Part shown: positions 18,777 to 21,994 of the stretch, piece after piece
Layout of the letters: every line of letters begins with the position of its first letter
How positions within the stretch are numbered: position 1 is the first letter of the stretch
From: an uncultured delta proteobacterium
GTDB taxonomy: Bacteria; Desulfobacterota; Desulfomonilia; Desulfomonilales; Desulfomonilaceae
Assembly (NCBI GenBank): GCA_963789265.1
Contig: CAWBKB010000001.1
Location: 800,001-864,000, forward strand
Length of the DNA: 64,000 bases
Reading direction: 5' to 3'
Notes under the pieces: model-generated
Told to the model about the DNA's origin: nothing
Databases searched by the model: none
The model's input: the letters and a program-made list of their open reading frames with translations, nothing else
Translations under genes and position numbers: made by a program

Positions 18777-20445
18777 ATGGCAAGAGTCGTCGTTGACCCC
18801 ATTCCGAGGATTGAGGGTCACCTGCGCATAGAGGTAGAAGTACAGAATGGCAAGGTGAAGGACGCTTGGAGCAGTGGAACGCTCTTCAGGGGGATTGAAA
18901 TAATTCTACAGGGACGTGACCCTCGGGATGCCCACCTGATTACCCAGCGTTCCTGCGGTGTTTGCACCTTAGTCCACTCGTTGGCCTCCGTCAGAGCGGT
19001 GGAGGATGCTCTCAAGATAAAGATTCCCCCCAATGCCAGAATCATACGTAACTTGACCCACACGCCCCAGAAACATGCACGATCACCCGGTCCATTTTTA
19101 TCAATTGTGTGCCCTGGACTGGGTGGACGTAGTATCGGCCCTTCACGCGAACCCAAAGAAGACCGCAGATCTCTCCAACGCGGTCAGCGGCCGGCCTCAG
19201 AGCGCGAAGTATTACGAAGCTCTCAAAGGGAAGTTGAAAGCTTTTGTGGACTCCGGCCAACTGGGTCCCTTTGCTAACGCCTATTGGGGCCACCCTGCTT
19301 ACAAGCTTAATCATGAGGCCAATCTGATGGCCGTGGGGCACTATCTGGATAACCTGCGCAACCAGGTTTATGCTGCTCAGCTCACTGCAATTTGGGGCGC
19401 TAAGAACCCACACCTGCAAGGACATCTGCCCGGCGGCGTGACTGTAGCTCAGCAACTTGCCAGCGTGGAATGGATTGCCAAGTACAAATACATGCTCGCC
19501 GAGCAGATCAAGTTCATCGAGCAAGTCTACATTCCGGACATCTTGGCTGTGGCCGGTTTCTACAAAGACTGGACTAAGATCGGGGGAAACAAGAACTTTC
19601 TCTCCTACGGAGATTTTCCTGAAGGCCCAGAGGAACCGGAGAGCTTCTACTTCAAAAGAGGCGCAATTCTGGACGGAAAACTCAATCTTGTGAAAATCGA
19701 CCCGGGGAAAATTACCGAAGAAGTGGCGCACTCCTGGTATGAGGGGGGGAAGCCGTTACATCCTTACTCAGGTGAAACCCTACCGCTTTCGGGTGACAAG
19801 CTCAAGGGAGCGATTCCCGACACCAAAGACCAGAACGGGAAGTACAGTTGGATCAAGTCGCCCAGGTACGACGGGAAGGTCATGGAAGTAGGCCCGCTGG
19901 CTCAGTGCCTGACGTCCTATGTCGGCGGCAACAAGGAGATCAAAGAGAATGTCGACATGGTGTTGAAGAAGCTCAATGCAAAGCCTGATGCGTTATTCTC
20001 CACCTTAGGACGGATAGGGGCCCGCGGTATCAAGTGCCTGGTTAACGCCAGGAGGGCCCAGAAATGGGTTGACGACCTCGTCGCGAACCTTAAGAAGGGT
20101 GACACAAAGACCTTCACATCATACAAGCTCGACGAGAGTTCCAACGGTGAGGGCATGGGTCTAAATGACGTCGCGTGGGGCTCCCTGGGGCACTGGGTCA
20201 TTATAGAGAAAGGCAAGATCAAGAACTACCAGCAAGTTGTTCCGTCCACGTGGAACCTTGGACCCCGGGATGCTAAAGGGCAGAAGGGACCTGTAGAGAA
20301 CGCTCTTATCGGAACCCCCGTTGCCGATCCGAAAAAGCCTCTTGAAATTCTCCGCACAGTCCATTCCTTCGATCCATGCATTGCCTGCGCGATACACGTG
20401 ATCGATCCCCACACAAACGAGGTCTACAAATTCAGGATCTCCTGA
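18777..20445 (+). CDS. Group 1 [NiFe] hydrogenase large subunit, +1 frameshift near 19070
   Basis: RIEGH and L1 QRSCGVC in ORF 18777-19277; [14 protein letters not shown]2 DPCIACAIH plus cleavable tail in ORF 19075-20445. Confidence 0.92.
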
Positions 20446-20466: not shown

Positions 20467-20493
20467 AGGGCGGCCGAATGGCCGCCCTTTTTT
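20467..20493 (+). terminator. Rho-independent terminator after the hydrogenase operon
   Basis: AGGGCGGCC-GAAT-GGCCGCCCT followed by a T-run. Confidence 0.85.
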
Positions 20494-20537: not shown

Positions 20538-21311
20538 TTATCCCCATATACGAACGGCATCGGTTGGGCACTTCTTGTGGCATTCCAGACAGGAGATGCA
20601 CTCTTCCGGCCGATCGTCGGAGACCCCGAACTCATTGCTGTCGGGTGCAGTTTCCATAGGACATACCTTGTTGCAGGTCCCACACCCGATGCAGTCCTTT
20701 GTGCGTTCCGGGAAAATGGCTGCGAATCGGTTGAATACTGACAGACACGCCCCGAGAGGACAGATGACTTTGCAGAAGAACCGTCGATGCCCCATGATCA
20801 AGATGATCAATCCAAAGAGGATGGCCAGCCGAACAGAGAGGCTCACGACGTGAGTGGTTCCATTGATTACTGCCCAGGGAATCGCGGATTCAATTGTGGC
20901 CACGGGACAAAGCTTGCAAAAATAAAGCGGCGAGTTTGGGGAGAGGAAATAAGGGACGAGGACCAGAAGGCCCACAAATACTCCGTACTTGATGAATCGT
21001 GTCCAAGAAGGAATTTGAAACTTGACATAAGGCACCTTGTAAAGAAGCTCCTGAGCGAGTCCGAAAGGGCAGGCCCAGCCGCACAGGAACCTTCCCGCCA
21101 ATAGCCCGGCCACTGCTATCCCGCCTACTACACTCAATGGGACGATCCCCAGAGAGACGCACTGGCCGATTACCCCCATGGGGCAGGCAAAAACTGACAC
21201 AGGGCAGGAATGACAGTTAAGGACGGGAAAACATATAAAATGCCACTTGAACAGCCCGATATTGAAAAGGGCTGCCAGGACCACCTGGACCTTTAATCTG
21301 ATTCTTTCCAC
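20538..21311 (-). CDS. Membrane 4Fe-4S polyferredoxin (NapH/MauN/RdxA-like)
   Basis: LNCHSCP..ACP, GRFLCGWACPFG, FCKLCP, RFFCKVICPLG, two CxxCxxCxxxCP motifs, several TM segments. Confidence 0.88.
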   Translation of the reverse strand: MERIRLKVQVVLAALFNIGLFKWHFICFPVLNCHSCPVSVFACPMGVIGQCVSLGIVPLSVVGGIAVAGLLAGRFLCGWACPFGLAQELLYKVPYVKFQIPSWTRFIKYGVFVGLLVLVPYFLSPNSPLYFCKLCPVATIESAIPWAVINGTTHVVSLSVRLAILFGLIILIMGHRRFFCKVICPLGACLSVFNRFAAIFPERTKDCIGCGTCNKVCPMETAPDSNEFGVSDDRPEECISCLECHKKCPTDAVRIWG

Positions 21312-21455
21312 TTTTATGAAACCTTGTCCGGAGCCGCCGAGACTCTTGGAAGTCTTAGCAAACGGACTGGCACGCCTTGATGAAGCGGCTCACGGTCTTT
21401 CGAGATTTCTTGTCGTCGAAGCCGTTTCGAATTCCGGCTTCAGTCCGTAGACGGC

Positions 21456-21471
21456 ACCGCAGACCTGCGGT
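21456..21471 (-). promoter_or_regulatory. Putative bacterial SECIS hairpin
   Basis: Minus strand ACCGCA-GGTC-TGCGGT begins 12 nt after the in-frame TGA; lower stem TAGGCG/CGTCTA; no U-tract. Confidence 0.7.
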
Positions 21472-21476
21472 CGCGC

Positions 21477-21800
21477 CTAGGTTCAGGAAGGACATGGACG
21501 CCGGCCCTTGAGCATTCGCAAGTCCGGATAGTTGGAAATCAGACGCCCGTCCTTGTACTTGCCGATACCGTCAAAGGTTTCGGCATTGACTACTTCGGGC
21601 TCGGTAAACCACTGGGACTGGACCTTGAACTGACCTTTTTTCTGCTCATATCCCGGGATTTTGATGGTGATTCCAACGCCTTTCAGCTTATCAAACTTCT
21701 CGAGGTTGTCGAAAATGAGAAACTTCCGGAAAAAACCGCCATAAACTATTGCGGTGAGACTCATCACCAGCAGGATTGCGAAAAATACTTTTCTAATCAT
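21477..21800 (-). CDS. Small membrane-anchored protein with C-terminal CPSU motif; probable selenoprotein (TGA at 21485-21483 read as Sec)
   Basis: ...TGT CCT TCC TGA ACC TAG followed by a SECIS-like hairpin; N-terminal hydrophobic anchor. Confidence 0.72.
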
Positions 21801-21994
21801 CGTAGCCCTTCTCCGACAATCCGCATCTGCCTTGGCCTATTTTGAGAACTGCTGAGCGGAACGGTTGGTCTATCGACCTCGGATTCATAAAATCATTATA
21901 CCCGAATTACGATTGACCCACCATGGCAATCCGTGTCATTAAAGCGGAACTTCTCCAGTAGACGGCAAGTCGCGAACAGGAACGAAGAAAAGGA

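Follow-up and report, generated by a model that had tools for sequence, protein, structure and literature searches.

A predicted selenoprotein family of the Desulfomonilaceae with a penultimate selenocysteine and a SECIS-like hairpin beyond the stop codon

Introduction

Does a small gene of an uncultured delta proteobacterium end at its first TGA, or is this TGA decoded as selenocysteine (Sec)? The question is raised by a stretch of 64,000 nucleotides (nt) of contig CAWBKB010000001.1 (GenBank assembly GCA_963789265.1, family Desulfomonilaceae; positions 800,001 to 864,000 of the forward strand), which is referred to here as the window. An earlier note, made from the sequence alone, had described in it an open reading frame (ORF) of 105 amino acids (aa) ending RRP-C-P-S and followed by TGA, ACC and TAG, and all of these sequence statements were confirmed. 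The ORF, whose strand the note had not mentioned, lies on the minus strand, starts with an ATG at 21800 and comprises 105 sense codons up to the TGA (21800-21483 including the TGA). On this strand its 3' end reads CGT CCA TGT CCT TCC TGA ACC TAG, corresponding to R-P-C-P-S-TGA-T-stop, with the ACC (Thr) codon at 21482-21480 between TGA and TAG. When the TGA is translated as Sec (U), the protein ends P-C103-P-S-U106-T107. The GGAG of a Shine-Dalgarno-like site is located at 21814-21811. The features of the small gene and of the hairpin that follows it, for which a function as Sec insertion sequence (SECIS) had been proposed, are:

21480..21800, minus strand: coding sequence of the predicted 107-residue selenoprotein (ORF list and translation with TGA as U, 46-orthologue alignment, AlphaFold2)
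21483..21485, minus strand: in-frame TGA, proposed Sec codon of residue 106 (48/48 loci; 0 changes on the 43-locus tree)
21477..21479, minus strand: predicted true stop TAG, two codons past the stop of the gene callers (in-frame stop there in 48/48 loci, 12 tree changes)
21806..21814, minus strand: Shine-Dalgarno-like GGAGAAGGG, 5-13 nt 5' of the ATG (direct reading of the sequence)
21448..21479, minus strand: SECIS-like stem-loop (RNAfold; hairpin in 48/48 loci; covariation; invariant loop G; fdhF core)

The comparisons described below argue that the small gene very probably encodes a selenoprotein in which the UGA is decoded as Sec. The best explanation as a whole, which combines the Sec tail with a membrane anchor, the pairing with a NapH-like polyferredoxin and a proposed redox arm, is given a probability of roughly 0.8.

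Results

Codon conservation at the end of the small gene

The small gene was compared across 48 loci, comprising the window and 47 loci from a scan of one genome per species, all of them Desulfomonilaceae or Desulfomonile-type metagenome-assembled genomes (MAGs) that carry various older labels. The codon after PCP[ST] is TGA in 48/48 loci. The residue that follows it is isoleucine at 31 loci, leucine at eight, threonine at six and valine at three, with none outside these four (codons in use: ATC, ATT, ATA, CTC, CTG, GTA, GTT, ACC, ACA and ACT), and the codon two after the TGA is a stop in all 48 (TAG 24, TAA 14, TGA 10). Reading frame and conservation were thus found to extend past the UGA at each locus, by one constrained codon and then a stop of variable identity. 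The Pro codons flanking the tail are used in all four synonymous forms and therefore silent sites are saturated.

As a matched control, the stop codons of three neighbouring genes were tallied in the same loci. The gene for the NapH-like protein (TAG 13, TAA 16, TGA 16; n=45), gmk (TAG 12, TAA 16, TGA 15; n=43) and htrA (TAG 15, TAA 11, TGA 8; n=34) each use all three stops. The fewest changes were then counted on a maximum-likelihood tree, which covered the 43 loci whose NapH-like protein is complete and left out four incomplete loci. The TGA of the small gene required 0 changes, the second stop 12 and the codon between them 15, while the control stops required 15 (NapH-like), 14 (gmk) and 7 (htrA). 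Since the TGA does not change whereas the second stop changes as control stops do, the TGA appears to act as a sense codon that is followed by a constrained residue and then by a codon acting as the genuine stop.

These counts also bear on the reading that the TGA is a real stop, the second stop a fail-safe tandem and the hairpin an element for mRNA stabilisation, processing or translational coupling. As this reading would have it, the ORF needs no read-through to be complete and stands in the databases with 105 aa. However, a genuine stop would drift, as the stops of the neighbours do with 7-15 changes; a fail-safe stop need not lie exactly one codon away in 48/48 loci; and the intervening codon is kept to I, L, V or T through its 15 changes. 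A real stop at this TGA is accordingly considered very improbable.

Two of the loci (L055 and L012) are located on two contigs of one MAG, so that one bin holds two copies of the locus, which may be an assembly duplicate or a strain variant. The L055 copy carries a frameshift within the small gene, yet retains the TGA-ATC-TAG tail and the hairpin.

A conserved hairpin shortly past the UGA

Eleven nt past the TGA, an apical stem-loop is formed by ACCGCA (21471-21466), the loop GGTC (GGUC; 21465-21462) and TGCGGT (21461-21456). It is extended by a lower stem in which TAGGCG (21479-21474) pairs with CGTCTA (21453-21448), including one G-U pair. RNAfold returned exactly this two-tier stem-loop (-23.4 kcal/mol), and the spacing, the lower stem and the lack of a U-tract were all as the earlier note had described them. 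The whole element lies at or after the true stop, in intergenic RNA. A function as terminator was rejected, as no U-tract or T-run follows and a terminator scan was blank at the site. An Rfam scan of 21300-21900 (E <= 10), for which it was not checked which bacterial SECIS models are included, gave only a chance match to Zeta-pan (15.8 bits against a gathering threshold of 56.7).

A hairpin was found in 48/48 loci, with its loop starting 15-20 nt past the UGA (17 nt at 23 loci, 16 nt at 15, 18 nt and 15 nt at four each, 19 nt and 20 nt at one each); at 44 of the 48 loci the distance is at least 16 nt, the range used by bSECISearch being 16-37 nt. The loci contain 36 distinct 5' stem arms, and the mean folding free energy of the hairpin is -9.6 kcal/mol compared with -3.7 +/- 3.1 in shuffles. 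RNAalifold, run on a plain MAFFT alignment, identified five consensus pairs, of which four show compensatory changes, and the first loop G was invariant. The share of paired cells (88.3% vs 70.8% in shuffles) and the covariation score (0.52 vs 0.25, with slid controls at <=0.20) were reached by 0/500 shuffles, and the number of double changes in the stem (40 vs 12) exceeded all 500. Together with the conserved TGA at the homologous C-termini, this comparative evidence supports the earlier suggestion that a SECIS lies beyond the stop codon.

The gap between the true stop and the start codon of the NapH-like gene ranges from 35 to 320 nt (n=46). Because the distance from UGA to loop stays within 15-20 nt, the position of the hairpin seems to be tied to the UGA and not to the start of the downstream gene. 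For a real stop with a hairpin acting on the mRNA one may point out that the element lies between two co-oriented genes, that its single fold is not significant and that no Cys forms of the protein exist among the sequences searched; the spacing fixed to the UGA and the missing U-tract argue against it.

The earlier note had further stated that the Escherichia coli fdhF SECIS shares its core with the window hairpin at nearly the same distance, which proved correct on the real fdhF sequence. The E. coli K-12 element contains the identical core GCAGGUCUGC; its GGTC loop, with the same GCAGGTCTGC core, starts 18 nt past the TGA compared with 17 nt in the window, and in both cases the GGUC loop is closed by identical GCA...UGC pairs. 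In contrast to the fdhF SECIS, which is located within the reading frame, the window element lies entirely past the true stop, and its stem is a perfect 6-bp helix whereas fdhF has a bulged U, visible as GGUUGCA/UGCACC. Among relatives of the window gene, many other stem sequences occur.

Selenocysteine machinery and selenoproteins of the host

The genome (9 contigs, 95.6% complete) encodes selA (594 bits, cut-off 268), selB (386 bits, cut-off 242), selD (360 bits, cut-off 125) and a tRNA-Sec(tca), so that the complete Sec machinery, which the earlier note had named as a check, was found in the host. Within the family, selB scored above the cut-off in 66/70 genomes, the four exceptions being 80-94% complete. 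Several family genomes (e.g. G043, G017, G006, G064 and G018) encode a second full-length SelB-like protein of ~285-307 bits, likewise above the cut-off, the main SelB of such genomes scoring ~370-410 bits.

One in-frame TGA each was present in selD (C7:193442-194362) and in three genes of the MvhD/FlpD type (C3:727630-727998, C3:722868-723236 and C3:1001699-1002070), which indicates a sizeable selenoproteome in this organism. The known selenoprotein genes of the genome carry the same kind of element as the small gene: in selD a 7-bp stem carries a GGA loop 20 nt past the UGA, one MvhD-type gene shows an 8-bp stem whose GGA loop lies at 23 nt, and two others are weaker.

Read-through that is stimulated by downstream RNA structure is known in principle, and the UGA might instead be read by a standard tRNA (near-cognate Trp, Cys or Gly, or a suppressor), the hairpin merely slowing termination. 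The codon data fit this to the extent that they reveal selection for read-through and not the identity of the residue. However, roughly one in three neighbouring genes uses TGA as its normal stop, the genome has a complete Sec system, the hairpin resembles the SelB-binding elements of this genome's selD and of E. coli fdhF in position, size and G-containing loop, and a Cys three residues upstream completes the classic CxxU redox motif. Decoding by a standard tRNA is thus very improbable. The comparison of 48 loci and the machinery of the host instead support the claim, already made in the earlier note, that the UGA specifies Sec in a CxxU-x-stop tail.

Family, structure and distribution of the small protein

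The small protein begins with a hydrophobic helix (residues 2-23) and contains a conserved domain of ~80 residues. In an alignment of 46 orthologues the mean column identity was 78%; C103 is the sole invariant Cys, and position 106 is invariant as well. AlphaFold2 (mean model confidence, pLDDT, 72.4) predicted helix 2-23 followed by a small alpha/beta domain. Searches with this model yielded 0 matches at E <= 0.001 against the PDB with Foldseek (best 0.21) and none with Z >=5 in a wide VIA-align search (best Z 3.3). A sequence search of the PDB gave nothing (best E 1.1), and the homologue P0105 had no usable match in the ESM Atlas. Neither Pfam nor NCBIfam has a family that matches the small protein; the catalogued selenoprotein families represented by such a model, as far as named in the available part of Table 1 of PMC13188914, are thereby all excluded. 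The description in the earlier note of an N-anchored protein of an unrecognised family is consistent with these results.

A protein search returned 190 homologues, 120 of which were listed. The listed proteins all end at the same residue, within PCP[T/S/A] (T 97, S 22, A 1), as would be expected if gene callers cut the product by two residues, which had also been predicted. In a search without word index over 1.84 billion representatives, one full-length cluster at the 50%-identity level (68% identity) and three fragments were obtained, indicating a narrow family. The small protein is present in 67/69 genomes of its own family and in 0/52 of the sister family of the same class; it is a core, single-copy gene of Desulfomonilaceae. 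A scan of 401 phylum genomes with the pattern P-C-P-[ST]-TGA-NNN-stop proved insufficiently specific: several hundred matches arose, and each of the 30 loci returned from these was a chance hit with no real ORF and no NapH-like neighbour, so that the family is neither extended nor limited by them. In the literature on selenoproteins, Desulfomonile, CD1871A and NapH-like proteins, where supplementary tables could list it, no description of the small-protein family was found. From these sequence comparisons, a selenoprotein family that had not been annotated before, with its SECIS located past the stop codon, is therefore proposed with high confidence.

The NapH-like polyferredoxin and its gene neighbourhood

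Downstream of the small gene, the following feature was identified:

20538..21311, minus strand: NapH-like membrane polyferredoxin, 257 residues (Pfam, NCBIfam, gene order, invariant Cys)

The protein sequence contains roughly four hydrophobic segments and four CxxCP/CxxxCP motifs and closes with a 2x[4Fe-4S] ferredoxin domain at the C-terminus. It matches PF12801 (Fer4_5) with 47.4 bits (cut-off 22). An assignment as true NapH/MauN (TIGR02163) was rejected at 52.7 bits, far under the cut-off of 213, and the protein is therefore called NapH-like and not NapH. Only its ferredoxin domain found matches in a PDB sequence search. The NapH-like gene lies directly downstream of the small gene in 47/47 loci, while gmk is divergent and upstream of it in 43/47, and a gene for an HtrA-type protease is also a neighbour. 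This gene order suggests that the small selenoprotein is likely functionally tied to the polyferredoxin.

On the far side of the pair, where the hydrogenase and NapH-like genes converge, a 9-bp GC-rich hairpin followed by a T-run (20467-20488, plus strand) lies between them; no other terminator-like site occurs close to where the two-gene operon ends. The gene for the [NiFe]-hydrogenase large subunit (18777-20445, plus strand) is found in two overlapping frames (18777-19277 and 19075-20445). The break lies near 19055-19075, around ...CACACGCCCCAGAAACATGCAC..., beside short homopolymers, and represents either a 1-nt assembly error or a real frameshift. The C-terminus of the hydrogenase, DPCIACAIH, is of the Cys type and not of the Sec type.

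Anchored micropeptides beside related polyferredoxins

In a phylum sample of 301 genomes, polyferredoxin homologues outside the family did not exceed 44% identity to the window protein, and 12 such loci (L068-L079; 35-44% identity) were examined. At 11 of these 12 loci a small ORF is located directly upstream of the polyferredoxin gene. It encodes, in mature form, ~35-50 residues with an N-terminal hydrophobic helix and the C-terminus C-[LM]-x-C-[IVM]-G-[IVL]-[GIR]. In 5/11 of these micropeptides (L069, L070, L071, L075 and L079) a TGA stands in place of the first Cys codon, so that the C-terminus would read U-[LM]-[SA]-C-I-G-x-G-stop. In four of these five Sec forms a hairpin of 6-7 bp follows, its GGGU or GGC loop lying 18 nt past the UGA; in the fifth, a weaker one lies at 29 nt. 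The hairpins of the six Cys forms are weaker (-1.7 to -6.6 kcal/mol), and L078 is the only one among them with a loop 18 nt past the Cys codon.

Two Cys forms matched NF040920 ('CD1871A family CXXC motif-containing protein', cut-off 32 bits) with 42.4 and 39.5 bits, and the other three micropeptides tested reached 19-25 bits. The window genome has no match to NF040920, which places the 107-residue selenoprotein in the slot of the micropeptide. The small protein itself gave no match to the NF040920 hidden Markov model at E <= 1, and hhalign aligned it to the CD1871A profile with 31% probability, over the membrane helix only.

The CD1871A micropeptides and the small protein have several features in common: both are encoded directly upstream of a homologous polyferredoxin, both have an N-terminal membrane helix ending in a conserved Gly, and both carry a Cys-x-x-Cys-type pair at the extreme C-terminus; in some micropeptides Sec replaces one Cys, and there too the SECIS runs beyond the stop. 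The resemblance is one of architecture only. The small protein has 107 residues, including an extra conserved domain of ~80 residues, compared with ~45 in CD1871A; its tail is PCP[ST]U[ILVT] instead of C[LM]xC[IVM]G[IVL]G, and Sec is the second member of the pair, whereas it is the first in the micropeptides. With anchored CxxC or UxxC micropeptides at 11/12 outside loci, a terminal Cys/Sec redox pair on a membrane anchor emerges, by sequence, as a recurrent companion of this polyferredoxin type. CD1871A is absent from the selenoprotein table entries of PMC13188914 in its available part, and a literature search on CD1871A found no paper naming it.

In an alignment of 13 NapH-like sequences (the window and L068-L079; window numbering), C33, C36, C43, C77, C81, C135, C180, C184 and seven of eight ferredoxin Cys are present in 13/13. 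C132 is replaced by Ser and C248 by a residue other than Cys in the polyferredoxins of L069, L070, L071 and L075, and likewise in L074, which has no upstream peptide ORF. Both cysteines are kept in the L079 polyferredoxin and in the partners of Cys-form micropeptides. This pattern may reflect a compensatory relation between peptide and partner.

Discussion

If the comparisons are read correctly, the ribosome would decode the UGA at 21485-21483 as Sec, directed by the intergenic stem-loop that starts 11 nt downstream, would add one further residue, which is Thr in the window gene but Ile, Leu or Val in related ones, and would terminate at the TAG. The product, ending Cys-Pro-Ser-Sec-Thr, is predicted to be held in the membrane by its N-terminal helix. 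The small gene would be co-transcribed with the NapH-like gene, and the protein most likely works with the product of the latter.

Several observations weigh against this interpretation. The fold of the window hairpin on its own is not better than chance (z -0.71; 47/200 shuffles fold at least as well), and its significance thus derives only from the 48-locus comparison. The hairpin is without any Rfam family match and its stem lacks the bulged U of the fdhF element, such a bulged U in the upper stem being important for SelB. Only one residue follows the UGA, which leaves scant downstream coding signal. CxxC variants had been expected in some genomes; neither the 120 listed proteins of the 190 homologues nor the 1.84 billion representatives contained a Cys form, and in the 68 genomes with a match every alignment that extends to residue 107 includes the TGA. 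As no Cys homologue was found, the customary support from a Sec/Cys alignment is missing. Residues 42-60 and the tail are poorly modelled and the ~80-residue domain has no assigned fold. The charges flanking the anchor are nearly balanced, so that the periplasmic orientation suggested in the earlier note stays tentative. Finally, the small protein is linked to the polyferredoxin by gene order.

Sec close to a C-terminus has precedents. Eukaryotic thioredoxin reductase, with its C-terminal Gly-Cys-Sec-Gly arm, and the membrane selenoproteins SelS and SelK carry Sec at one to three residues from the C-terminus, in a flexible tail that shuttles electrons as a selenylsulfide; SelS and SelK moreover have a single N-terminal anchor. 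All of these belong to another domain of life, show no homology to the small protein and differ from it in the electron donor. Among bacterial families, KCU-star (NF033934) and UXX-star (NF041114 and NF041211) likewise have Sec <=3 residues from the end and are truncated silently by gene callers, according to the available part of a 2026 review (PMC13188914). With Sec at such a position, in these families as in the small protein, the SECIS must sit beyond the stop codon. The KCU-star and UXX-star models do not match the small protein and have no sequence relation to it, and the same part of the review does not describe them as membrane-anchored polyferredoxin partners.

A possible function is suggested by the partner. 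According to the available text of Meheust et al. 2021 (PMC8238504), NapH-like proteins are modular units for transmembrane electron transfer, with an extracytosolic FMN (flavin mononucleotide)-binding domain that is fused or encoded next door. NosR, PceC and relatives combine a PF12801 membrane iron-sulfur protein with a membrane-anchored redox domain, either fused to it or encoded by a neighbouring gene, and this domain is believed to take electrons across the membrane (same text of PMC8238504). Unlike those partners, the small protein has no Pfam match, and hence no FMN-binding domain or flavinylation motif of the kind described there; its redox-capable groups are one Cys and one Sec only. 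By analogy with NapH-like systems, Cys103 and Sec106 may be the redox group served by the polyferredoxin. The pair would alternate between selenylsulfide and thiol/selenol on a flexible C-terminal arm like that of thioredoxin reductase, would be reduced by the iron-sulfur and cysteine relay of the polyferredoxin, and would in turn reduce a substrate located at the surface of the membrane, probably the outer one. Drawn from analogy, this electron relay as stated is given slightly less than even odds.

The tail also resembles metal-binding CPxC motifs. A selenoprotein whose Cys-x-x-Sec tail is a ligand instead of a redox arm, either for an iron-sulfur cluster or metal site of the NapH-like protein (as a structural subunit) or as a binder or carrier of soft metals and metalloids (candidates Hg, Cu, As, Se and polysulfide sulfur), would fit the finding that 4/5 loci with Sec-form CD1871A micropeptides have polyferredoxins without C132 and C248, as if a ligand were supplied in trans. 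Several recently described CU/CxxU selenoproteins have been linked to organometal chemistry (Haft and Gwadz 2022 preprint, in its available part), which favours the same idea. Against it, no conserved metal-resistance or transporter genes lie beside the pair, whose neighbours are gmk and the gene for the HtrA-type protease, and all those polyferredoxin cysteines are invariant within Desulfomonilaceae. A ligand function is regarded as a serious, though less probable, alternative to the redox arm.

The proposed selenoprotein would belong to a new family that is invisible to current pipelines, which need Cys homologues or a family model; the available part of the deep-Sep paper (PMC12013277) states that its pipeline misses selenoproteins without Cys homologues. 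The annotation error itself goes unnoticed because just two residues are lost. A SECIS that lies wholly outside the coding sequence would inform how near to a real stop SelB can act and may be of use for the engineering of C-terminal Sec tags. That the family was never seen with Cys implies a chemistry for which cysteine is no substitute.

The fixed pair with a NapH-like polyferredoxin offers a concrete two-gene system, with a parallel in the CxxC/UxxC micropeptides, in which the delivery of reducing power across the membrane in strict anaerobes can be addressed. Tentatively, the obligate-Sec anchored protein and the NapH-like protein might constitute a new transmembrane reductase, in which electrons of [4Fe-4S] clusters in the cytoplasm would reach a selenylsulfide arm on the cell surface, and might form, together with the CD1871A micropeptides, a widespread and unstudied route of the type 'polyferredoxin plus terminal Cys/Sec peptide'. 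Taken together, the results point to a redox module, not described so far, in a single family of anaerobic bacteria. If true, the polyferredoxin-Cys/Sec route would provide the envelope of anaerobes with reducing power, as DsbD/CcdA do in model bacteria.

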